From positions 12,399-76,398 of the forward strand of contig JAQTVM010000001.1 of the NCBI GenBank assembly GCA_028706745.1: a stretch of 64,000 nucleotides of DNA. The letters are read 5' to 3'. Below, piece after piece: positions 9,894-26,200 of the stretch; position 1 is the first letter of the stretch; each line of letters begins with the position of its first letter. The notes below the pieces were generated by a model. It had not been told where the DNA came from and did not search any database. It saw nothing but the letters and a program-made list of their open reading frames with translations. This DNA is from Candidatus Nanoarchaeia archaeon (lineage in GTDB: Archaea; Nanobdellota; Nanobdellia; SCGC-AAA011-G17; GW2011-AR17). The position numbers were made by a program, and so were the translations under genes.

Positions 9894-12245
9894 TCAAAAA
9901 TCTCCCAAGTTCTTCTGTTTTACCCCTTTAGCGGCATCTTCAAATGTCTGCCCCATAAAGCATAGAATTGCGTCTGCAATCGGCTTGAGCTGCTTTTTAA
10001 GATAATGCTCATAGTCAATCTTATGCGATACAAAACCCATGGGCTCAGGCCCGTCTTCTGTCATCACGTATTCAATGATATTGCTTTCAACCTTCGGCAG
10101 TTTTCTTGCTGCCTTTATATGCGGCGGAGTTGTCTTTGTATATTCATCAATATTTTTTCTTGCTGTTTTCCTGTAAACAAGCCGGGAATCAAATTCCCCT
10201 TTCTCCAGTTTTTGCACAAAATCAGCTATGAAAGGAAGCAATTGCTTGTCATGAAAAAGCCTGTCAAGCAGTTCGTACTGAAACTTCTTTGCAAGCTCTG
10301 TCCAGTCTCCCCTTACAAACTCTAATCCTGTAATGTCAATCTTCTCCTTTCCTTCTTTTATAACCAGCCCCGCATACCTCTTTTTTGCGCCAACTTCTGT
10401 CTTGCGCAGCTTGGGCATCAAAAACTTCAAAAAGCACTTGTCAAACTGCATGTCAAGGAAAGAATCCCTCTTGAACTGCTTTTTCACATATGATTTATAA
10501 AATTCATTAATCTGAATCGCAAGCTTTCTTCCTATTTCCTCTGCCTCTTCCCTGTTTTTTGCCTTTGTAACAACAAAACAAGAGTCAGTGTCAGAGTAAA
10601 GCACTTCATATCCCCTTTTCCTGATTTCAACTGCAGTGTTCTGTATAATCTCCCTTGCAAAAGAGGTTATAGCATTCGCAATTGCCATGTTAAAGAACCT
10701 TGAATTAGGGGAAGCCATTGCGCCGTAAAAGCTGTTCATCAGTATTTTTATTGCATACCTTGCAAGCTCATCCTTTCTTTTTCTTGCTTCCTCCCTTGAA
10801 GCCCATAATTTATGTATTATTGAGGGCAAAATCCCGTCTTCATTCTTAAAGCACGCGCCATTCGGCGATTTTACCATTCCCTTAGCACACTTTTCAGAAA
10901 AAGAGGAGGGATCAATGTTAAAAGTTGTTATAATCGACGGATACAGCGATTTGAAATCAAGCACAGCTACATTCTCATAAATCCCCGGCTTTGGCTCCAT
11001 TACAAAAGCGCCTTTTACCATGGTTTCCTTTTCAGCATAAGACATAGACGGGCAGACAAGCCCTCTTTTCCTTGCCTCGCGAATGTACAATGAATCAAGA
11101 GAGGCAATCGAGGCAGAAACCCTGTCAATCTGCATTCCTGTCAGCAAACTGCGTTCAATCGCAAGGCTCAATGCATTTGACTTTTCAATTATCTTAATCA
11201 CAAGCCTCGCATCCTGAAGATTGTAATCAGCAAGCAATTGGGGATTTTTCACAAACATCTCGTCAATTTCATTCCCTTTGCTTGTAAATTTCACAAGCTT
11301 TCCCTCGCCTGTAAATGTTCTTGCGGCTGTCTCAAGCCTGTAATCCTCAAGCCTGATAAAAGCCCCCTTCAATAACTGCATTGCGTCAATTATCAGCCTG
11401 CCTTCTGCATCTGCCTTTGACTCTTTCATGAAATCCTTTTCAATCCTTAATTTGCACCTTGCATTTCCCCTTCCGAGAGCCAATTCCATTCCGTATTCCC
11501 TCATCCTGTCTTGCAAAACCTTAAGGTCAAAGTCAATCAGGTTCCATCCTGTTATTATGTCAGGATCAAACTCTCTCACTGCATCAATAAACTTCTCAAG
11601 CACTTCTTCCTCTGATTTGCAGCAGACTGCATTTTTTATTTTTTTCTTTGTGTTGATGAATGTATTTTCAAATGAATCAGCAGCCAATGAAATTGCATAC
11701 ACTTCGCCTGCATCCTGCCTTGTTTCAATGTCAAGAGAAAGCACTTTCAGCTTTGGAAAGAAAGAAGCAGGCTTAAAAGAAGGATTTTTGAAAACAAGAA
11801 GGTTGTCCTGATATTCCTGCTCTCCGTCAATATCAACACATCCTTTTATGTCGTTGTCAATAAGAAAGCGCTGCGCAAAACGTATGTCAGCTTCATAGCA
11901 AACAATGCCGTTTGATTCAAGCATCTGCCTGTATTCAGGAACGTCAGAAGGCTTTTGCGTGAAAATGCGCACAACCTTGTCGCCATTGAATGTCTTAAGC
12001 CCTGTCTTCTCAATCTCAAGCTCCTCAACTTCTCTTGCTCTTTTTAAGTCAGCTTCCTTTATGTAGAAATAAGGCTTGAAAGGAGCCACTGCTGCAAATG
12101 ACTCTCCTTTTTCCAGCCTTCCAAATAAGAATACATAAGGGCTGTCCCCTATAATCCTGTATGTCGAATACAATACAAAACCTTTCATGAGATGAAGTAA
12201 TAAAGGTATGATTAAAAGCCTTGCGGCTATATGATTTTCTGGCAA
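9894..12245 (-). CDS. polB: DNA polymerase, family B
   Basis: 783 aa; 3'-5' exonuclease motifs and polymerase motif C (LYSDTDS), motif A/B region. Confidence 0.9.
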   Translation of the reverse strand: MPENHIAARLLIIPLLLHLMKGFVLYSTYRIIGDSPYVFLFGRLEKGESFAAVAPFKPYFYIKEADLKRAREVEELEIEKTGLKTFNGDKVVRIFTQKPSDVPEYRQMLESNGIVCYEADIRFAQRFLIDNDIKGCVDIDGEQEYQDNLLVFKNPSFKPASFFPKLKVLSLDIETRQDAGEVYAISLAADSFENTFINTKKKIKNAVCCKSEEEVLEKFIDAVREFDPDIITGWNLIDFDLKVLQDRMREYGMELALGRGNARCKLRIEKDFMKESKADAEGRLIIDAMQLLKGAFIRLEDYRLETAARTFTGEGKLVKFTSKGNEIDEMFVKNPQLLADYNLQDARLVIKIIEKSNALSLAIERSLLTGMQIDRVSASIASLDSLYIREARKRGLVCPSMSYAEKETMVKGAFVMEPKPGIYENVAVLDFKSLYPSIITTFNIDPSSFSEKCAKGMVKSPNGACFKNEDGILPSIIHKLWASREEARKRKDELARYAIKILMNSFYGAMASPNSRFFNMAIANAITSFAREIIQNTAVEIRKRGYEVLYSDTDSCFVVTKAKNREEAEEIGRKLAIQINEFYKSYVKKQFKRDSFLDMQFDKCFLKFLMPKLRKTEVGAKKRYAGLVIKEGKEKIDITGLEFVRGDWTELAKKFQYELLDRLFHDKQLLPFIADFVQKLEKGEFDSRLVYRKTARKNIDEYTKTTPPHIKAARKLPKVESNIIEYVMTEDGPEPMGFVSHKIDYEHYLKKQLKPIADAILCFMGQTFEDAAKGVKQKNLGDF

Positions 12246-12299
12246 AATACAGCATTTTTAAAGGGAATATTTATAAACCTAAGTATTATTACTAATGCC

Positions 12300-14321
12300 A
12301 TGGCAGGAAAAGACGCCAAAAGCCTCGAAGAAAGGCTCAGATTGGGCTTTGACTGCGATGCACTATGTTCTACAGAGCAAAAAAAGGAAGAGCTCAGAAT
12401 TAACAAGGTAAACGGGATGGGCGCTTTCCTGAAAGAGGATTATTCATCAGCAAGGCAGTTCTTTATCAATGCAATTCCCAAAACAGGCGACAAGCAGGAG
12501 AAAGAATGGTTTTACAGGAAGATAATAGAGTGCTCAAAAGAGCTTTTTAAGAACCTGATGGACAACCAGCTTGAAGACAAGGCAGAAGAAGAGTTCAAAA
12601 GAGTATGCGCCGGGTATGAGCATCTGATAAAGGCATTTGAAACATCTGATAATTACCTTGACTATATGTCTTTTGTAGGCTTTGAGATGAGCGACAAATA
12701 TGACAAAAATCTTTTTGAAGAGGCAAAAAAAATAGGCGAAAAGGCATTATGCCGTTTCCCTGAAGACCATCGCCTTTACAAGGAAATGTATGACTTATGC
12801 ATTTACACGCAGGATGATGAACTGGAAGATAATTGTATACACACGGCTGCAAAGCTAAAATTCAACGATGCAGATTATATGCTTGATTCTTTCGGCAACG
12901 CATTATGGCAGAGGCATAAGGATAATGGGATTATTCCTTTTCAGACAATAATGGAATGCAGGGGCGGGGCTTTGTATGAAAACCCCGCAGCGCTGCAGAA
13001 ATACGGCAAATACATGGTTGACAATGTTGCAGGCAATGATAAGCTTGCGCTCCATATGCTTTATACAGCATACTGCAAAAAGCCGCTTATGCCCGGATTA
13101 AAGGAAGACCTTGTTGATGCTTTTGAGCAAACCATGGAATATATGAAAAAGAATAATGCGCCAATTGCAGAAAGAAAGCTTTTCATCGCCAGATACCAAA
13201 AAATTCTTGAAATCAGGAAAGAACTTGCAGGGGAAAATGAAAAAGAGAATGAAAAAAGCGCAGACCGGAACAGGTTTTCAAGCGAGATAGTTGTTGTGAA
13301 CCCAAAAGAAATAAAGCAGTACCTTGACCAGTATGTGATAGGGCAGGAGCAGGCAAAAAGAGGAGTTTCAGTGGGATATTACATGCACCTCCTGCGCCTT
13401 AAGCACCAGGGAGAAAAGAATTCAAAAATGGACAAGAGCAACATCCTTCTTCTCGGTCCTACAGGCTGCGGAAAAACATATATGCTGCAGATACTTGCGC
13501 AGATGTCAAAGGTTCCATTTGTAATATTCGACACTTCAAAGATAACATCAGCAGGCTATGTAGGAAGCGATGCAGAAGACTGCCTTAAGTCCCTCGTGAA
13601 TGCGGCAGAAGGGGACATTGAGCTTGCACAGAGAGGCATAGTTTACCTTGATGAGGCTGACAAGATAAAGGCAAAGCCCGGATACGGGAAAGATGTCGGC
13701 GGAGAAGGCGCACAGCAGCAGCTTTTGAAGCTTTTGGAAGGCTCGATTGTAAATGTCGGCGGGCATAATGAGAAAAAGTTTCAGATAGACACAAAAAACA
13801 TACTTTTTGTCGTTGGCGGGGCTTTTTCATACACAGAAGAAGGCGGCAGCATTGGTGACAGGATTCAGTGCAGGGAAAAGGTCGTAGGATTCAGGATGCA
13901 AAAAGACGAGCCGGAAGAAACAAAAACATGCAAAGAAGATAAAAAGAACATTGTTACAAAGCTCACTGACAAGGATTTGCACGAATATGGTTTCCTGCCT
14001 GAATTCATTGGCAGATTGCATTACAGAATTGTGCTTGACTCGCTTACAAAGCCCGAACTGAGAAGAATCCTCACAGAACCCGGAAATGCAATCATACCGC
14101 AATATGAAAACGCGTTCAGGCTGTCAGGAATAAAGCTGGTAATAAGGGATGATGCCCTTGACACAATCGCAGAAGAGGCATTTGCCTTGAATGCAGGCGC
14201 AAGAAGCCTCAAGACAATCTGCGACAAGATATTTGAAGACGCATTGTTCCACCTTCCGGGCAGCAGCACCACGGAGTATATTGTCAATAGAACGGAAGTA
14301 ATGCGCTACATAAAGAAATAG
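12300..14321 (+). CDS. ClpX-like AAA+ unfoldase with novel ~345-aa N-terminal alpha-helical domain
   Basis: C-terminal 330 aa match ClpX nearly motif-by-motif. Shared motifs: YVIGQEQAK, GPTGCGKT, GYVGSDAED, QRGIVYLDEADKI, GGEGAQQQLLKLLEGS, YGFLPEFIGRL and GARSL. A VGF tripeptide sits at the IGF-loop position. The N-terminal Zn-binding domain of ClpX is absent. ATG at 12300 is preceded by TTTATAAAC at 12269. Confidence 0.75.
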   Translation: MAGKDAKSLEERLRLGFDCDALCSTEQKKEELRINKVNGMGAFLKEDYSSARQFFINAIPKTGDKQEKEWFYRKIIECSKELFKNLMDNQLEDKAEEEFKRVCAGYEHLIKAFETSDNYLDYMSFVGFEMSDKYDKNLFEEAKKIGEKALCRFPEDHRLYKEMYDLCIYTQDDELEDNCIHTAAKLKFNDADYMLDSFGNALWQRHKDNGIIPFQTIMECRGGALYENPAALQKYGKYMVDNVAGNDKLALHMLYTAYCKKPLMPGLKEDLVDAFEQTMEYMKKNNAPIAERKLFIARYQKILEIRKELAGENEKENEKSADRNRFSSEIVVVNPKEIKQYLDQYVIGQEQAKRGVSVGYYMHLLRLKHQGEKNSKMDKSNILLLGPTGCGKTYMLQILAQMSKVPFVIFDTSKITSAGYVGSDAEDCLKSLVNAAEGDIELAQRGIVYLDEADKIKAKPGYGKDVGGEGAQQQLLKLLEGSIVNVGGHNEKKFQIDTKNILFVVGGAFSYTEEGGSIGDRIQCREKVVGFRMQKDEPEETKTCKEDKKNIVTKLTDKDLHEYGFLPEFIGRLHYRIVLDSLTKPELRRILTEPGNAIIPQYENAFRLSGIKLVIRDDALDTIAEEAFALNAGARSLKTICDKIFEDALFHLPGSSTTEYIVNRTEVMRYIKK

Positions 14322-16750: not shown

Positions 16751-18748
16751 ATGATAAGAAAAAATGAATCACAGAAAGACATACTTTTGTTTAATTATTT
16801 GAAAGATAAACGTTCTTTTCAAGAAAAATGGAATACTAAAAAAACAACAAATAAGTTTATTCAACCAGTTCTTGATACTTCAAGTAAGAAAAAGAATGGG
16901 CAAAGAGGAGAACCTGATTTTGTATATGTAAACGAAAAAAGGAAAATATTAATATTAATAGAAAATAAAGATGATATTAATCAACATAAATCTAAAAATG
17001 AAGATAATCCTATAACTTATTCTGTAGACGGTATAAAACATTATTTAAGTTGTTTTAAGAAGGATTATCTAGAAAATTTTAATATTACAATTAAAAAATA
17101 TTTAAATGATTGGAAAATTGTTGGGATTGCTGTATCTGGAAATATTGAGGATGAATATAACCATTTAATCTCTACTTATACTCTCCAAGAAGATGAAGTA
17201 AAAGATATAGAAACAGAAGAAATACTTAATGAAGAGGATTACCTCTCTTTATTTGAGAATATCAATTTAGAAAAAATAACAAGAGATATATCCTTATCAT
17301 CAAATAAGATTAATAATCTTTTACGTTCTTTAGATTCACAAAAGAGACCCATTCTCCTTAGTGCTTTAATGATATGTTTATTTGAACCCAAAAATATTCA
17401 AAATGATTTCAAAAATAACTATTCTAATTGGACAGCAAACACAATTATAACGAATATTCCACTAATAATAAAAACGATTTTAGGAAATGAGGGGATACCC
17501 TCGGAAAAGATTGAAGTATTAAATAATGAACTGACATTTATTAAAACAGATTTAGAACTTAAAAATACAGATATATTGAAGGATATACTCAATGAGCTCG
17601 AGAATAATGTTATCCCACAATTTAATAAAAGCCATAATTATGATATTATTGGGAAGTTTTATGAAGATTTTTTGAGATATGCAGGAGTAACAAATGTAAA
17701 AAAAGGGATTATTTTAACACCTGCCCACATTACTAAATTATTTACAGAATTAATTGATGTTAAAACAAATGATGTTATTATTGATACTTGTTGTGGGACA
17801 GGGGCATTTCTTATTTCAGCGATGAATAAAATAATTGAGGAAATAACAGATTCAAGTATTAAAAATAAAAAAGATTTAATTGATAAAGTTAAACATAAAC
17901 AGTTAATTGGTATCGAAAAGAATACGACCATGTATACTCTCGCAATCTCTAATATGCTATTTAGGGGGGATGGTAAATCCAATATTTACCATTTAGATTC
18001 TTTTTCAAAAGAAGCAGATAAGATTTTATTAAATCTTAAAAAGAGGGGAATTATTCCAACAATCGGCTTTATCAATCCGCCTTATGGCGGTAGAGATAAT
18101 AAAGAAAATCCTACTAAAAAAGAAATTCAATTTTTAGAAAGATTATTGGATAATGTTAGCCGATACGGTATAATCATTGCACCATTGTCTACTTATTTTA
18201 AAGAAGAGATTATTAGAAGTAGAATATTATCCAAGCACACTTTGAAATATGTGATAAATATGCCAAAAGAATTATTTCAACCAAATGCATCTACACATAC
18301 AGCTATTGCAGTATTTAAAACAAATTTACCCCATAATAATAAAGAAGTTATATTTTATAATCTTCAAGATGACGGATTAGTTTTATCAAAAAATAGGGGC
18401 AGAACAGATGCATTAAATAAGTGGGCAAAAATAAAAAAGGAATTATTAACAAAATTGAATAATCCTAAAAAATATGCTGATGGAATAAATCTCGTTATAA
18501 CAAAAATCAGTAATGGGGATGAATGGATATTACAAGCTCATGCAAAAACAGATTATACTAAGATTAATGAAAGAGCATTTATTAATAGTATAAAGCAATA
18601 TATTATCTTTTCAACGAAGAGAAAACTAGGTCTATTAGACAGAGATATTGATGAAATAACCTTATTGGAGATACTTAATGAAAATAAGATAAATGCCAAT
18701 GCTTTACTAAGAGATGTTAAAATTAAAGAAAAAAATGAAAAGATATAA
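16751..18748 (+). CDS. fused restriction-modification enzyme (N-terminal PD-(D/E)xK nuclease plus gamma-class N6-adenine DNA methyltransferase), BcgI-A-like / Type IIB-IIG
   Basis: N-terminal EPDFVYV...ILILIENK (PD...ExK); MTase motif I VIIDTCCGTGAFL and motif IV FINPPYG (NPPY). Confidence 0.75.
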   Translation: MIRKNESQKDILLFNYLKDKRSFQEKWNTKKTTNKFIQPVLDTSSKKKNGQRGEPDFVYVNEKRKILILIENKDDINQHKSKNEDNPITYSVDGIKHYLSCFKKDYLENFNITIKKYLNDWKIVGIAVSGNIEDEYNHLISTYTLQEDEVKDIETEEILNEEDYLSLFENINLEKITRDISLSSNKINNLLRSLDSQKRPILLSALMICLFEPKNIQNDFKNNYSNWTANTIITNIPLIIKTILGNEGIPSEKIEVLNNELTFIKTDLELKNTDILKDILNELENNVIPQFNKSHNYDIIGKFYEDFLRYAGVTNVKKGIILTPAHITKLFTELIDVKTNDVIIDTCCGTGAFLISAMNKIIEEITDSSIKNKKDLIDKVKHKQLIGIEKNTTMYTLAISNMLFRGDGKSNIYHLDSFSKEADKILLNLKKRGIIPTIGFINPPYGGRDNKENPTKKEIQFLERLLDNVSRYGIIIAPLSTYFKEEIIRSRILSKHTLKYVINMPKELFQPNASTHTAIAVFKTNLPHNNKEVIFYNLQDDGLVLSKNRGRTDALNKWAKIKKELLTKLNNPKKYADGINLVITKISNGDEWILQAHAKTDYTKINERAFINSIKQYIIFSTKRKLGLLDRDIDEITLLEILNENKINANALLRDVKIKEKNEKI

Positions 18749-19745
18749 ACTAAATCTAAAAAATTGGAAATATTTTAATTTTAATGATATATTTTCATTT
18801 GAGAGGGGAAAAAGGCTTGTTGAATTAGACCAAATAGGGGGAGATATACCTTATATTGCATCTTCCAAAAAAAATAATGGTATAACAAATACAATTAATC
18901 CTCCTGAATTTATGAAATTATATCGGAATGTTTTAACTCTAAATAATAGCGGGAGTGTAGGATATTGTTTTTATCAAGAATCAGATATAGTATGTTCAGA
19001 CCATGTAACTGTAATATGGATTAAAGATGAAAATGTTAAACTAAATCCATATACTGCTTTATATCTAAAACCTATAATAGAATCAATGCAATATAAATTT
19101 AATTTTGCTAGAGAAATAAGTGATGCTAGGTTAAATAAAGAAAAGATATTACTTCCAACTGACAAAAATGGTAATCCTGACTGGTATTTTATGGAAAATT
19201 ACATAAAGCATATTTCTAAGAGAATAAAATATGATAAGGTAATAAATTTAAGAATAGCGAAGAAATTAGATACCCAGAAATGGAAATGGTTCGATATAGG
19301 AAGTTTATTTGAAATTAAAAAAGGAGAACGATTAATTGAAGAAGAACGAATTAGGGGTGAAATCCCTTTGATTACTGCCTCATCTGAAAATAATGGCGTT
19401 GTTGATTTAATATCCTACCCACATTTTAATAAAGAAAAAAAATGTTTTGAAAATAAGATAACAATTGATATGTTCTTCAATGTATTCTACCATAATTATA
19501 AATATTTTAGTGATGATAATGTTCATACTTTAATACCACTTTTTGAAAAAGTAAATACTTATATTTCATTATTTTTAGTAGCAGTTCTTAAAGAATTACA
19601 ATTTAAATATGCTTATGGTCGACAATTAAGAATAAAAAGATTAGAATTAGAAAAAATTAAGCTTCCCATAGATAAAAGAGGTAAACCTAATTGGGTATAT
19701 ATGGAGGATTATATTAAATCCTTGCCTTATAGCTCAAATCTTTAG
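18735..19745 (+). CDS. specificity (S) subunit with two target-recognition domains (HsdS/BcgI-B-like)
   Basis: Two internal repeats: WKYFNFNDIFSFERGKRL...PYIASSKKNNG and WKWFDIGSLFEIKKGERL...PLITASSENNG. ATG at 18735 overlaps the stop of the upstream gene by 14 nt. Confidence 0.75.
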   Translation: MKRYKLNLKNWKYFNFNDIFSFERGKRLVELDQIGGDIPYIASSKKNNGITNTINPPEFMKLYRNVLTLNNSGSVGYCFYQESDIVCSDHVTVIWIKDENVKLNPYTALYLKPIIESMQYKFNFAREISDARLNKEKILLPTDKNGNPDWYFMENYIKHISKRIKYDKVINLRIAKKLDTQKWKWFDIGSLFEIKKGERLIEEERIRGEIPLITASSENNGVVDLISYPHFNKEKKCFENKITIDMFFNVFYHNYKYFSDDNVHTLIPLFEKVNTYISLFLVAVLKELQFKYAYGRQLRIKRLELEKIKLPIDKRGKPNWVYMEDYIKSLPYSSNL

Positions 19746-20371: not shown

Positions 20372-20728
20372 ATGGCAGACATATTCGACGCGGACATTGT
20401 ATGCGACGCATGCAAAACAAAAACAGTGAAGGGGGAAATCCTCAAGGAAGGATTCAAGATAAGGGCATGGCGCTGCCCGAAGTGCGCCAAGATATGGCCT
20501 CACCCTCTTGACATGGCGCAGTACGAGGATTTCAAAAAGCTTAAGCAGAGGGATTTCGAGGTAAAGCTGAGGCAGGTGGGCAACAGCTGGTCTGTTTCAA
20601 TACCAAAGGAGATAATCAACTTTGAGGCTGTAAAAGCGACAAAGCTTGTCAGGCTTTCATTGGACAACCCGGGAAGGGTTTCAATTTCATTCACGCAGAT
20701 TAAAAGAGTAATCAACAGGGGGCAGTAA
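20372..20728 (+). CDS. Zn-ribbon plus AbrB/MazE (swapped-hairpin) domain protein
   Basis: CDAC...CPKC zinc ribbon; [18 protein letters not shown] matches the SpoVT/AbrB/MazE looped-hinge motif; 4 nt upstream of cdc48. Confidence 0.5.
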
Positions 20729-20732
20729 GAAA

Positions 20733-23597
20733 ATGGCAGAAAAAACAAGGGAAAAAAGATTGCAGGTAGTCGAGGCGCAGCAGGATGATGCGTTCAAGGG
20801 AATTGTAAGGATAGATTCTGAGATGCTCAAGGACATTGAATTAAGACCGGGAGACATAGTTGAAATAGAGGGCGCAAGAAAAACAGTCGCCATTGCAGAC
20901 AGGGCATACCCTACTGACATAGGCAGGGAAGTCGTAAGAATGGACGGCATAATGAGGAGAAATGCCAAGACAGCAATCGGCGAGAATGTCACAATAAGAA
21001 AGGCGGAAATAAAAGAGGCAAAGGAGATTATTATTGCTCCTGCTGAAAAAGGCATGATGATACAGGGAGAGCCGGACGTATTTTTGAAAGGATTGCTTGG
21101 CAGGCCGCTGCTGAAGGGGGATATTGTTGTCTTGGGCGGAGCAAGAACAAGGAGAAGGACAATGAGCAGCTCTCCTTTCGAGGAGATATTCCGCGGATTC
21201 GGGCTTGACATGGGGCATTTCGGCTTCAGCAACATAAGATTTGTCATTGTTGACACAAATCCAAAAACAGCAATCATAATCACAGAAGACACAAAAGTGC
21301 ATGTAAGACCTCAGCTGGAAGACAAGGATTTGTCAGAAGAAAAGGTTGCAGGCATAACCTATGAAGACATAGGCGGGCTTGATGATGAGCTGAAAAAAGT
21401 AAGGGAAATGGTTGAGCTTCCGTTGAAGCACCCTGAATTGTTTGAACGGCTTGGTGTGCAGCCTCCGAAGGGAGTCTTATTGCACGGTCCTCCGGGAACA
21501 GGAAAAACACTTTTGGCAAAGGCAGTCGCGACAGAGGCAGATGCCAAGTTTTATTCAATCAACGGGCCTGAAATAACTTCCAAGTTTGTGGGAGAGGCTG
21601 AAAAAAACATCAGGACAATATTTGAAGATGCTGAAAAAAATGCGCCTTCAATTATTTTTATTGACGAGATAGACGCAATCGCTTCAAAAAGGGAAGAAAC
21701 ATACGGCGATGTTGAGAAAAGAATTGTTGCGCAGCTTCTCGCCACAATGGACGGGCTTAAATCAAGGGGAAAAGTAATTGTTATGGCTGCGACAAACAGG
21801 CCAAATGCAATTGACCCTGCATTGAGAAGGCCGGGAAGGTTTGACAGGGAAATAGAAATAGGAGTTCCGTCAAAAGAAGGAAGATTAAGCGTTCTGAAGA
21901 TACACACAAGAAACATGCCGCTGAAATACTGGGACGACTCTGTTGCGTGCAATGTCCTGATGAAAAGGCTGAGCTCATTTGAAGAGGATGCCAAGGCAAG
22001 GATTAGCCAGAAAAAAAGTTCTGCAAGCCAGCTTAATGCCGAGCTGAAAGAAAAAAGCAAGGCGCTTGAAGAAAGCGCGGCTGAATTGAGAAAAATGGAG
22101 CAGCAGAAAAAAGACAGCCCTGACTCTTTCCTTACAGACATAATGGCAAGGATAAATTTCAAGCAGGGCAAGATTGCCGACTTGAAAAAGCAGATAGACA
22201 AGATTAAGTCTGAAATTGAAAGCATTCCGAAAGAGATTAAAAAAATCGAAGAAGATTTGATTGTGGACAAAGAGCTGCTGAAAGAGATAGAGAAAGACAA
22301 AAGCATCCTTCTCGAGCTTGAATCAAAGCTAAAGGAGATTATACACACAAAAGAGATTCGCTCTTTTGAAGACGCAAGGGATTTGTTCCTGAACAAGGAC
22401 TTGAAAGAATCACAGACAAAGATTAAGTCTGTCATTGAAAAGTTCATGAAATCAGGCATACTGTCAGGAGAGTTTGTGGGAGAGATATACAAGGAATCGT
22501 CTGTTATCCTGTTGAAAGGGCTTGCCCAAAAAACATACGGGTTTGTGGGAGCTGACCTTGAAGCATTATGCAAGGAAGCTGCAATGAATGTGGTGAGAAG
22601 AGTACTGCCTAATGTAAACTTCAAGGAAGACGTTCCGATAAAGCCGGAGATTTTGGAAAAATTGGTTATTACTCAGGAAGACTTTGATTCTGCAATGAAA
22701 AACGTCAGCCCTTCCGCATTAAGGGAAGTGTTTGTCGACATACCAAATATCAAATGGGGCGACATCGGCGGATTGAATGATTTGAAGCAGGAACTGAAAG
22801 AGGCAATTGAATGGCCCTTGAAATTCCCTGACTCATTCAAGAGAATGGGGGTTCGCCCGCCGAGAGGGGTAATGATGTACGGTCCGCCCGGCTGCGGAAA
22901 GACATTGCTTGCAAAAGCGGCTGCAAACGAGTCAGAGGCAAACTTCATTTTGGTAAAGGGGCCCGAGCTGATTTCAAAGTGGGTTGGAGAAAGCGAAAAG
23001 GGAATCAGGGAAATCTTCAAGAAGGCAAGGCAGAGCAGTCCCACAATAATCTTCTTTGACGAGATTGACTCAATTGCTCCGAGAAGGGGAAATGAGGCAG
23101 GCACGCACGTCACTGAAAGAATGGTTAACCAGCTTTTGACTGAGATGGACGGGCTTGAGACGCTGAATGACGTGATTGTGATTGCAGCGACAAACAGACC
23201 GGACATTATTGACCCCGGTTTGCTTAGGCAGGGAAGGTTTGACAGGATTATACTTGTCCCGCCGCCTGACACAAAAGCAAGGGAGGAGATTTTCAGGATA
23301 CACACAAAGAACATGCCTCTTGCAAAAGACGTGAAGATAGATAAGCTTGTTGAAAAAACAAACAATTATGTCGGCTCTGACATTGAAGGCATCTGCAGGG
23401 AAGCCGCCACAATTGCATTGAGGGAAAGCATTGACGCAAAGGATGTGAAGCTGAAGCATTTCGAAGAGGCGGTAAAGAAAGTGAAGAGCTCAATCCTGAA
23501 TGAAGAAATACAGAAGTACAGGGAAATTGAGAACAGCTACATACGAAATGCAAGAAGCATATCTGCCGGAGAAAAGGACAAGAGCTACTTCGGCTGA
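20733..23597 (+). CDS. cdc48: Cdc48/VCP-like AAA+ ATPase with ~180-aa coiled-coil insertion in the D1 helical subdomain
   Basis: N domain present. D1 Walker [12 protein letters not shown]; D2 Walker [11 protein letters not shown]; both second-region-of-homology motifs present. 954 aa versus ~740 aa typical. A K/E-rich heptad-like segment lies between IHTRNMPL and [11 protein letters not shown] (about nt 21920-22475). Confidence 0.85.
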
Positions 23598-24550: not shown

Positions 24551-25351
24551 ATGGAAGAGCATAAAAAAAAGCAAGGAAGATGGATAAAAAGAATTGCCTG
24601 GGGAATGCTGGCAGGAAGCCTTTATGCTGTTTCAGGAAATATCTACACTTGCGCAAGAATAGAGGGAGATATCTTAGAAGCGGGAGAAGGGCATTTCAAC
24701 AGGTATCCGGATGAGGGATTTTATGATGAGTTTGCAAGGGATTTGGACTATCTTGATTTTGACTTGCAGGAAAAAAAGCCAAAAGGAAAAACAGTTGTGC
24801 CTATTGCAGTTTATGTGCATATCGGGCTGAAAAGCTATTTTGATGACGCAAACAACTCGGATGATGGCAACCTGTGGGCAAAAGAAGTCAGGAATGCGCT
24901 TGCCGGGCTGGATATGTATAAGGATTATGGGATAGAATTTGAAGTAAAAAGGGTAAGAGCAACTGAAACTGCAGCAGAGTTTGAGGAAAATGGCTATGCC
25001 TGCCTGTTTCACCCGGACTATAAGGATAGAGAAATTGCAATTGCATTTTATCCAATGAACGGCAGGCTTGGTAAAGAACAAGATTTAGGAAGGGCATACG
25101 TGGAAGGAAATTATGCAGAAGTATACCTCTCAAATAATGAGACATACAATAAAATAATAACTGCGCATGAGATGGGGCATATATTTGGGCTGAGACATGA
25201 TGAGGACATAAGCAGCTGGGCTGCACTCTATGATCCTTTTAGGATATTTTCAGGCCATCTTATGAGACAACATCTTCAATCCCAGGATTTGACATTAAGC
25301 GAAAATGATGAAGAAATACTGGAAAAAGCAAAAGAAAGGTTCAGGCGCTAG
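24551..25351 (+). CDS. membrane-anchored or secreted zincin metalloprotease (HEMGHIFGLRHD; metzincin-like HExxHxxGxxH)
   Basis: N-terminal hydrophobic segment; extended zinc-binding consensus. Confidence 0.5.
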   Translation: MEEHKKKQGRWIKRIAWGMLAGSLYAVSGNIYTCARIEGDILEAGEGHFNRYPDEGFYDEFARDLDYLDFDLQEKKPKGKTVVPIAVYVHIGLKSYFDDANNSDDGNLWAKEVRNALAGLDMYKDYGIEFEVKRVRATETAAEFEENGYACLFHPDYKDREIAIAFYPMNGRLGKEQDLGRAYVEGNYAEVYLSNNETYNKIITAHEMGHIFGLRHDEDISSWAALYDPFRIFSGHLMRQHLQSQDLTLSENDEEILEKAKERFRR

Positions 25352-25390
25352 AAAGGTTTTTATACAGAGGGAATATAGCAACAAATAGTT

Positions 25391-26200
25391 ATGAAAAGAG
25401 AGGTAGTAGACCGGATTTGCAAGGGCATAGGATATACCCTTCTTGGCTCTTTCTTGTATGTTTGTTCAGGACCCTGCTATGCCATGTACAAGTCAATGAA
25501 CATCAGTTCCAATATGGAAGGACAGAATAACAGGGAAAAAACAGAAGAGTATTACGAAGAGTTTGAAAAAGAAAGAAAAAGCCTTGAGCAGAGGTTAAGA
25601 ACAGACAATGATAATGAAGAGACAATAGTTGAAACAGACATCTACGTCTCTGAAAGCCTGAAATACTTCTTTGATGACAAGGACAATCTGAATGATAATG
25701 ATGATTGGGCAAGAAAAGTTGAAAAAGCGGTTTCAGGGCTTGACGCATTTGAGGATTATGGCTATGATTTCAGGGTAAGATATGTAAGGGTAATTCCCGA
25801 AAGTATAGAAAAAATGGGATTTAAGCATATAACTTATTATATGGCAGGCAGGGAAGATACAGCGGAGTTCAACATATCGCTTGTCCCAAACCCCCTGCAA
25901 AAATATTCATTTTGGGAAAGGATTCAGACAGACATGGTTTTCGGCATGGCATATGTCGGGCATGGGTACGGAATGGTCTATCTTGACAATAATGACTCCC
26001 TGAACAGGCACACGCTTGCGCACGAGGCAGGGCACATGCTTAATCTGATTCACAGGGAAGAAAACGCATTTCTTACTTGGTTTGACCCATTTTATTTTGG
26101 TGAAAGGGGGCTTATGTCTCAAGGCAACCTTAATTACAGCGACTATACGCTTAATGAGACGGAAATAGCAATAATTGGGGAATCAAAAAAGCGTTTCTGA
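25391..26200 (+). CDS. paralogous zincin metalloprotease (HEAGHMLNLIH)
   Basis: Same length and architecture as the upstream gene; shared YFDD...DDW..KV..A..GLD...DYG and HExxH blocks. Confidence 0.5.
   Translation: MKREVVDRICKGIGYTLLGSFLYVCSGPCYAMYKSMNISSNMEGQNNREKTEEYYEEFEKERKSLEQRLRTDNDNEETIVETDIYVSESLKYFFDDKDNLNDNDDWARKVEKAVSGLDAFEDYGYDFRVRYVRVIPESIEKMGFKHITYYMAGREDTAEFNISLVPNPLQKYSFWERIQTDMVFGMAYVGHGYGMVYLDNNDSLNRHTLAHEAGHMLNLIHREENAFLTWFDPFYFGERGLMSQGNLNYSDYTLNETEIAIIGESKKRF

Follow-up and report, generated by a model that had tools for sequence, protein, structure and literature searches.

The Cdc48/p97/VAT ATPase is a central protein-unfolding machine whose regulation in archaea is poorly understood, and we know of no established archaeal adaptor that is comparable to the eukaryotic Cdc48 cofactors. 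A 64,000-nucleotide stretch of DNA from a Candidatus Nanoarchaeia archaeon (contig JAQTVM010000001.1 of assembly GCA_028706745.1, positions 12,399 to 76,398 of the forward strand; hereafter the window) encodes a Cdc48 protein of 954 amino acids (aa), and the question that this locus raises is what some 190 additional residues are doing inside the alpha-helical lid of its first ATPase ring (D1). The analysis presented here indicates that this D1-lid insert is real, recurs among relatives, is dispensable and is apparently undescribed. We propose that it is a docking and/or regulatory arm, a reading that is argued from analogy with other AAA proteins and to which we give a probability of roughly one half.

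The open reading frame (ORF) at 20733-23597 encodes, to judge from its sequence, an unfoldase that is the Cdc48/VAT ortholog of a member of the Nanoarchaeota (DPANN). It scores 1009 bits against the CDC48 family model TIGR01243 (cutoff 802.65; aa 8-938 covered) and matches VAT of Thermoplasma acidophilum (PDB 5g4f) in phmmer with an E-value of 7e-239. The alignment with VAT falls into two blocks, residues 10-399 of the query corresponding to VAT 9-378 and residues 593-932 to VAT 386-723, and the approximately 190 query residues between the blocks have no VAT counterpart. Both this alignment and the AlphaFold2 model place the insert in the D1 lid between the first and second lid helices. An earlier note on this DNA, made from the sequence alone, had described a 954-aa Cdc48/VAT protein with an extra segment inside the D1 lid, and the family score, the VAT alignment and the predicted helices all agree with that description. 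The same note had stated that canonical Cdc48 runs directly from IHT.NM.L to GADL; this is borne out by the spacing between the HT.NMPL and GFVGADL motifs, which is 205 residues in the query, 19 in VAT and 13-14 (mostly 14) in roughly 85 of the 120 closest full-length homologs, every one of which comes from DPANN-type metagenome-assembled genomes (MAGs) named Nanoarchaeota, Woesearchaeota or Pacearchaeota.

Since the 3' part of the insert still resembles the canonical xKDVNLxxLAxxTHGF, we set its limits at aa 398-585, and its length comes to 186-191 residues. The size of about 180 residues given previously was thus of the right order, and of the limits given with it (21920-22475) the 5' one stands, while the 3' one lies approximately 12 nucleotides (nt) short of 22487. 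The insert contains 17.4% K, 13.3% E and 11.3% S, as compared to 8.7, 9.6 and 4.1% in the remaining protein, and so the K/E-rich character ascribed to it is confirmed. Sequence comparison and predicted structure together indicate that the D1 alpha5-alpha6 surface loop is expanded into an accessory module.

An artefactual or selfish origin of the insert is one possibility, be it a frameshift, a chimeric assembly, an intein or a recent mobile insertion. Relatives of the gene (P0003, P0025, P0031 and P0082) do host inteins, and a search with the insert alone against an index of 5.8 billion proteins returned no match. However, this empty result reflects a limitation of the search, as protein P0001 has an insert that is 78% identical to that of the query; negatives from this word-indexed search are unreliable where low-complexity or coiled-coil sequence is concerned. 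An exact copy of the query protein was absent from the contig index. The closest relative among the scanned species-representative genomes is found on contig L001 of a MAG named 'Nanoarchaeota archaeon Yes70-37' (91% identity), and over 2862 nt the two genes are separated by no insertion or deletion (indel), at a synonymous divergence (dS) of about 0.75-1.2, which is near saturation. The ratio of nonsynonymous to synonymous divergence (dN/dS) in this comparison is 0.11 for the insert and 0.034 and 0.052 for the two halves of the core, and GC content at third codon positions (GC3) is 0.52 in the insert and 0.44 and 0.54 in the core halves, in keeping with native codon usage. A homologous insert is also present in other independent assemblies, including those of P0001 (contig L001), P0002 (the 54-kb contig L085) and P0003, and alignment with relatives shows a continuous frame with no frameshift or assembly fault. 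An intein was considered and rejected, as the insert has no PF14890/PF14528 or other Hint match, begins with K-Y-W, ends with ...Y-K-E-S and is predicted to be all-helical. Taken together, these observations exclude a frameshift, a chimera, an intein or recent foreign DNA as its source, the comparison with L001 indicates that it is in frame and under purifying selection, and we consider an artefactual or selfish nature in any form extremely unlikely.

Inteins (PF14890/PF14528) are nevertheless a feature of this protein family. Besides the four proteins named above they occur at loci L015, L041, L046, L049, L054, L056, L061 and L064, the intein-bearing DPANN and Aenigmatarchaeota Cdc48 proteins have lengths of 1250-1450 aa, and in P0003 and P0025 an intein and a long lid insert are found together.

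The shape of the insert was predicted using AlphaFold2 with two inputs, an alignment of 50 full-length relatives (mean predicted local distance difference test score, pLDDT, 73.5; 67-88 over the insert) and the D1 lid alone with 12 insert-bearing relatives. The lid-only run reproduces the insert elements of the full-length run, in which the lid helices before and after the insert are also recovered (Table 1). With fair confidence, the model describes a long antiparallel two-helix hairpin (60 + 79 residues) that rises from a small helical base and after which a third helix comes, and the hairpin would be roughly 9 nm in length provided that its 60-residue helix is straight. Within the descending helix, hydrophobic residues recur with a 3.5-residue period that was reached by none of 2000 shuffles, and 90-92% of a/d positions are hydrophobic. 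The heptad-like pattern proposed in the earlier note is consequently strong in this helix, and suggestive in the ascending one. When the insert profile was compared with PDB sequences, Pfam and NCBIfam, it gave only sub-threshold matches to generic coiled coils (SMC, Rad50, spike HR1 and GCN4), and beyond these the insert appears to have no recognisable relative outside Cdc48.

Table 1. Elements of the Cdc48 gene, its D1-lid insert and the adjoining upstream gene, in window coordinates.
Feature	Position (nt)	Strand	Residues or extent	Basis
Zn-ribbon gene	20372..20728	+	118 aa; ends 5 nt before Cdc48 start	
Cdc48/VAT-type double-ring AAA ATPase gene	20733..23597	+	954 aa + stop	
N domain	20757..21311	+	CDC48_N aa 9-92; CDC48_2 aa 111-193	Pfam matches
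D1 AAA core and first lid helix (alpha5)	21474..21908	+	core aa 248-377; alpha5 aa 381-392, ending IHTRNMPL	
D1-lid insert	21924..22487	+	aa 398-585	VAT alignment, homolog spacing
Predicted hairpin, ascending helix	21936..22115	+	aa 402-461 (60 residues); begins just past W400, includes A405	AlphaFold2, pLDDT 72-88
Conserved tip and predicted turn	22083..22121	+	E451-L452-x3-E456-x-x-K-K; turn aa 462-463	12 class A inserts; AlphaFold2
Predicted hairpin, descending helix	22122..22358	+	aa 464-542 (79 residues), strong heptads	AlphaFold2, periodicity
Predicted arm base	22371..22454	+	D547-x-R549-x-x-F552 motif; third helix aa 550-574	class A alignment, AlphaFold2
Canonical lid resumes	22467..22613	+	alpha6 aa 579-600, ending ...LAQKTYGF; alpha7 aa 606-627	
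D2 AAA module	22746..23561	+	~aa 672-943	family models, VAT alignment, AlphaFold2
C-terminal Y-F-G (...SYFG)	23586..23594	+	aa 952-954	

The insert is not private to this genome. Among the 120 homologs, 13 proteins besides the query carry long inserts that we refer to as class A (spacing 205-256), six carry long inserts of class B (spacing 161-219) and seven carry the short inserts of class C (spacing 82-93). In all, a homologous long insert (spacing 161-256) was found in approximately 25 DPANN Cdc48 proteins and a few other archaeal ones. We define the long-insert family, made up of classes A and B, by its site between HT.NMPL and GFVGADL, its length of about 150-240 residues and collinear profile similarity; its marks are a W or F near the start and ED.R..F approximately 40 residues before the end, and the query insert has both. 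Compared by hhalign, classes A and B align with a probability of 98.9% (E 3.5e-17) over 138 collinear columns that include the ED.R motif, and by this measure they are homologous. Short helical inserts of about 60-90 residues occupy exactly the same site in Archaeoglobus profundus and other Archaeoglobaceae, in Thermococci and in class C DPANN proteins (P0267 and others), and are annotated 'AAA family ATPase'. Homology between these and the long insert was considered and is not supported by hhalign (probability 0.7%).

Searched against 1.84 billion cluster representatives, the class A insert profile found fewer than 10 convincing matches. The Cdc48 proteins among them are P0121, P0123 and P0124, with the insert at the same position, and the fragments P0122, P0130 and P0138; the other matches that were inspected (P0125, P0127 and P0128) are chimeric or truncated fragments, and the remaining, uninspected hits (about 130) are mostly multi-stretch matches of the type given by generic coiled coils. 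A profile of the lid plus the insert returned only proteins of ≤536 aa, mostly fragments, from the 5.8-billion-protein index, and was useful solely for the short inserts of Archaeoglobi and Thermococci. Among the inspected matches, therefore, profile similarity shows the long inserts to be one homologous family that is found only at the D1-lid position of archaeal Cdc48. This family is probably not confined to DPANN, because P0123 and P0124 are divergent Cdc48 proteins (both end in ..AYR) and the contig of one of them, which carries genes for fumarase, EPSP synthase and aspartate decarboxylase, lacks the gene that lies upstream of Cdc48 in DPANN. The concern that the segment might simply be common to a known Cdc48 subfamily is thus borne out in part: the insert recurs in DPANN orthologs and other inserts share its loop in Archaeoglobi and Thermococci, but no account of such a subfamily turned up in the searchable literature.

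The alpha5-alpha6 loop accommodates other inserts as well. P0015 (874 aa) has at the D1 site a different insert of approximately 115 residues (spacing 128), composed of pentapeptide-like repeats (..NVDLK..NIDLS..), and P0121, P0296, P0338, P0344, P0359 and P0371 have inserts of 40-88 residues in the corresponding D2 lid loop. The D2 insert of P0121, a protein that also has a long D1 insert, is 88 residues in length and contains two CxxC pairs in a Zn-ribbon-like arrangement. Since long, short, repeat and D2-lid inserts all use this loop, archaeal Cdc48 has here, in D1 and D2 alike, a hotspot at which lineage-specific modules are inserted. Among cultured archaea, the Cdc48 protein MJ1156 of M. 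jannaschii is unusually long (903 aa).

Conservation within the insert was assessed from 12 aligned class A inserts, whose distant members come from proteins that are 53-57% identical overall to the query. Three sites stand out. W400 is near-invariant at the start of the insert, where A405 is also conserved; the motif EL[KR]xLExxKK precedes the turn, with E451 invariant and L452 and E456 near-invariant; and D547-x-R549-x-x-F552, before the third helix, is invariant. The long helices between these sites keep their heptad character and change rapidly in sequence. The insert of P0001 is 78% identical to that of the query (core 92-96%), that of P0002 51% (core 86-90%) and that of P0003 74% (core 81-83%), and ten more distant class A inserts are only 23-37% identical. 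The rate of evolution of the insert is 2-3 times that of the core. Conservation at the anchor and the tip, with variation along the stalk, is the pattern to be expected of a spacer that presents a binding site.

The relationship between forms with and without the insert was examined through gene order and phylogeny. A homolog of the Zn-ribbon gene that precedes Cdc48 in the window lies directly upstream of Cdc48 in approximately 50 of 80 related loci, whether or not the insert is present; the Zn-ribbon protein of the window is 88% identical to that encoded upstream of P0004, which lacks the insert, and likewise 88% identical to that encoded upstream of the insert-bearing P0002. The core of P0004 is 82-89% identical to that of the query, and its loop at the insert site is LKEVNLDVLAATTH. 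That the two forms are paralogs was considered and rejected, as they share this conserved upstream gene, which points to orthology, and the 64,000-nt window contains no second Cdc48.

A neighbour-joining tree was built from 753 core columns (100 bootstraps), and in it the query, P0001, P0002, P0003, P0004 and P0005 form a clade with 100% support. Monophyly of the insert-bearing members of this clade receives 1% support, and in 88% of replicates the insert-less P0004 falls among them. Each of five further insert-bearing proteins has an insert-less protein as its partner in the tree (99-100%), which means that for at least six the nearest relatives lack the insert (bootstrap 88-100). Insert and core also rank the relatives differently by similarity, P0002 being closer to the query in its core and more distant in its insert, and P0003 the reverse. 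Given this patchy placement and discordance, the history of the insert probably involves repeated loss, and possibly also exchange of the insert as a cassette by recombination.

What, then, might the insert do? The M-domain of ClpB and Hsp104 (shorter in ClpC) is likewise a coiled-coil module that a double-ring unfoldase carries in the small, or lid, subdomain of its first ring. The M-domain lies on the periphery of the ring, binds Hsp70 (ClpB) or MecA (ClpC) and gates activity. The likeness holds at the level of the subdomain, and the two modules are to be seen as analogous, not homologous. Another module in the lid of a classic-clade AAA protein is the beta-domain of Vps4, which docks the cofactor Vta1; it differs in being a small beta structure at another lid position. 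Within the Cdc48 family, Rix7/NVL (D1 and D2) and p97 (D2) have functionally important lid insertions (PMC6355894; PMC5070193), which differ from the insert described here in following alpha7 instead of alpha5, in their small size (a single added helix, or some 50 aa in NVL) and in being eukaryotic. Deletion of the Rix7 lid insertions causes growth defects, and lid insertions have been listed for ClpB and p97 D2 together with Rix7 (PMC6355894).

A helical insertion between alpha5 and alpha6, the same topological loop, is also found in clade 7 AAA+ proteins (MCM, MoxR and dynein) as the pre-sensor 2 insert (PMC7973254). Three features mark that clade: an alpha5-alpha6 helix which repositions the whole lid, an insert in helix 2, and a hairpin at pre-sensor 1. 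The insert was considered as a pre-sensor 2 insert and this was rejected: family models place the query among classic-clade AAA proteins, its flanking lid helices are predicted to be VAT-like, and position alone coincides. No module is present in the D1 alpha5-alpha6 loop of the solved Cdc48/p97/VAT structures in the PDB. Searchable reviews and family surveys name lid insertions in NVL/Rix7, Pex1, p97 D2 and ClpB, and we found no description of an archaeal Cdc48 lid or coiled-coil insertion, long or short, in the searchable literature.

Because the AAA lid modules that serve as precedents each have a docking or regulatory role, we favour a docking and/or regulatory arm. A projecting arm that recruits substrates or partners, as the earlier note had suggested, would be in line with this by analogy. 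The lid would lie at the outer rim of the D1 ring and move with the nucleotide cycle, and N387 of p97, which we take to be the equivalent of the N in ..TRNMPL, presumably lies at the N-D1 interface. On this basis, the hexamer would carry six arms at its periphery, beside the N domains. The conserved tip of the arm would bind a partner or adaptor, or else the arm would contact the N domain or a neighbouring protomer, in either case coupling the contact to the ATPase state, in the manner of the ClpB/Hsp104/ClpC M-domain and of the Vps4 beta-domain.

A number of points weigh against such an arm. The heptad period of the ascending helix is weaker (p = 0.07) and the helix is rich in Ala and Ser. 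The arm is dispensable for core function, since a close ortholog, P0004, and most DPANN Cdc48 proteins lack it. The M-domain of ClpB has no similarity to the insert in either sequence or fold, and how the arm would be oriented on the ring is argued from analogy. The spacing at the site ranges over 161-256 residues, and the unrelated inserts that share the loop (the repeats of P0015 and the short helical inserts) fit a site that is merely permissive. These last points lead to an alternative, which we consider somewhat unlikely, that a permissive surface loop has been allowed to expand, and that the insert is a stable piece of helical decoration that binds no partner in particular, its frame being kept since disruption would harm folding of the lid and the insert being otherwise free to be lost. 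The patchy distribution, in which the nearest relatives lack the insert at six or more places, the highly variable length, the unrelated inserts in the D1 loop and its D2 equivalent, the rapid evolution and the ease with which K/E-rich coiled coils evolve would all be consistent with this. However, a dN/dS of 0.11 is far below neutrality, and W400, E451, L452, E456, D547, R549 and F552, some of them positions just before the turn, persist over deep divergence. Moreover, homology between classes A and B is held over 138 columns, and the family extends to Cdc48 proteins that are not DPANN-like (P0123 and P0124), both of which count against decoration.

A further alternative is that the arm acts within or between protomers and is no recruitment site, serving as a brace of neighbouring D1 modules, as a restraint on the up and down movement of the N domain, or as a linker that joins hexamers into higher-order assemblies. 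The insertion point presumably adjoins the N-D1 interface in p97, and the N domain of this clade also has an extra segment. In Rix7 the D1 insertion after alpha7 is in contact with the adjacent protomer, and would collide with the p97 N domain's position (PMC6355894), and in Hsp104 the M-domain touches the small subdomain of AAA1 and ties neighbouring ATPase modules together (PMC5130295). Against this, a hairpin of about 9 nm is much longer than is needed for reaching a neighbour, and the extra N-domain segment is present with or without the lid insert, and so does not co-vary with it. We regard such a role as unlikely. The N-domain segment itself (aa 136-164; 21138-21224) is arginine-rich, is absent from VAT, has a pLDDT of <50 and is kept clade-wide in DPANN relatives.

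The docking or regulatory reading can be taken further. It may be that DPANN and a few other archaea convergently gained an M-domain-like, partner-recruiting arm on Cdc48, in the form of a modular cassette that is gained, lost and exchanged. Exchange is suggested by the discordant insert and core ranks of P0002 and P0003, and yet we hold this fuller scenario to be quite improbable. The conserved tip would then recruit a specific partner, such as the Zn-ribbon/AbrB-like protein of the same operon, some chaperone, or a component of the surface or from the host that matters to an episymbiotic lifestyle, and were the scenario true, the Cdc48 unfoldase would be gated by a partner. As a D1-lid coiled-coil arm that is selected and recurrent but dispensable, the insert would give the Cdc48 family its first M-domain-like element, and would be a handle for finding the partners of archaeal Cdc48. 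The lid-loop hotspot would be useful for engineering and for annotation, given that insert-bearing relatives are now labelled only 'CDC48 family AAA ATPase' in the databases. If the arm is merely decorative, it is a minor structural curiosity. For the specialist the insert comes as a mild surprise, and by itself it opens no long-standing question.

As regards the rest of the protein, the ORF has the Pfam domains CDC48_N (PF02359), CDC48_2 (PF02933), two copies of AAA (PF00004) and two of AAA_lid_3 (PF17862), and shares the double-psi-barrel N domain (with its beta-clam) as well as both AAA modules, D1 and D2, of VAT (PDB 5g4f, 5g4g and 5vc7) and p97/Cdc48. The catalytic motifs of both rings are all intact, with Walker A at aa 252 and 717, Walker B at aa 307 and 772, and RxGRFD, which holds the arginine fingers, at aa 366 and 832. 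Pore loop 1 is aromatic-hydrophobic in each ring (KFVG at aa 284 and KWVG at aa 749), as it is in VAT, whereas D1 of p97 lacks this feature (PMC6355894). The unfoldase core would work in the manner of VAT, with substrate threaded through these aromatic loops. Many archaeal Cdc48 proteins, but not all, have an HbYX C-terminus that docks on the 20S proteasome. The query may, like VAT, have a C-terminus of HbYX type, and its SYFG matches the pattern [LVIMGAPFYW][FY]x>, that is, a hydrophobic residue followed by [FY]x>, as used by Forouzan et al. (PMC3493965). In 50 relatives Y952 (position -3) and G954 (-1) are invariant and the penultimate residue varies, so that conservation in the clade bypasses the penultimate position. 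We read the C-terminal YFG as a variant of HbYX, whether functional or not, which could dock on the 20S proteasome, and coupling to the proteasome is plausible.

The neighbouring genes were compared between related loci. The 118-aa protein encoded upstream has a CxxC...CPxC zinc ribbon with a weak DUF7479 match, and its C-terminal half weakly resembles the 'doc_partner' antidotes of AbrB/MazE type (TIGR02609, E 5.8e-6, below cutoff). As a candidate, it may be a cofactor of Cdc48 or a partner regulated together with it. A tblastn screen of related loci found no downstream gene that is conserved with the insert. A DUF1858 gene and two zincin-like genes of the window were absent at the other loci in this screen; L085 carries a DUF1858 gene on the other side of Cdc48. 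The zincin-like genes (24551-26200, + strand) are tandem paralogs of approximately 267 aa with an N-terminal hydrophobic segment and a zincin HExxH (weak Reprolysin/Matrixin matches), and neither was found beside Cdc48 at the related loci.

Between a gene for an M24 peptidase and the Zn-ribbon/Cdc48 pair lie Type I restriction-modification genes (16751-19745, + strand), encoding an HsdM-like N6_Mtase of 665 aa and an HsdS of 343 aa. The GC content of this island is 0.27-0.32, as against about 0.41, and since it is missing from the otherwise syntenic contig L085 it is probably a recent insertion. Further upstream (12231-14321, + strand) the window encodes a ClpX-like ATPase of 696 aa (NF003745, 357 bits against a cutoff of 359; AAA_2 and ClpB_D2-small), which is unusual for an archaeon and has an N-terminal extension of approximately 330 residues. 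L085 carries a 683-aa ClpX-like counterpart in the same neighbourhood, with PolB and the M24 peptidase.

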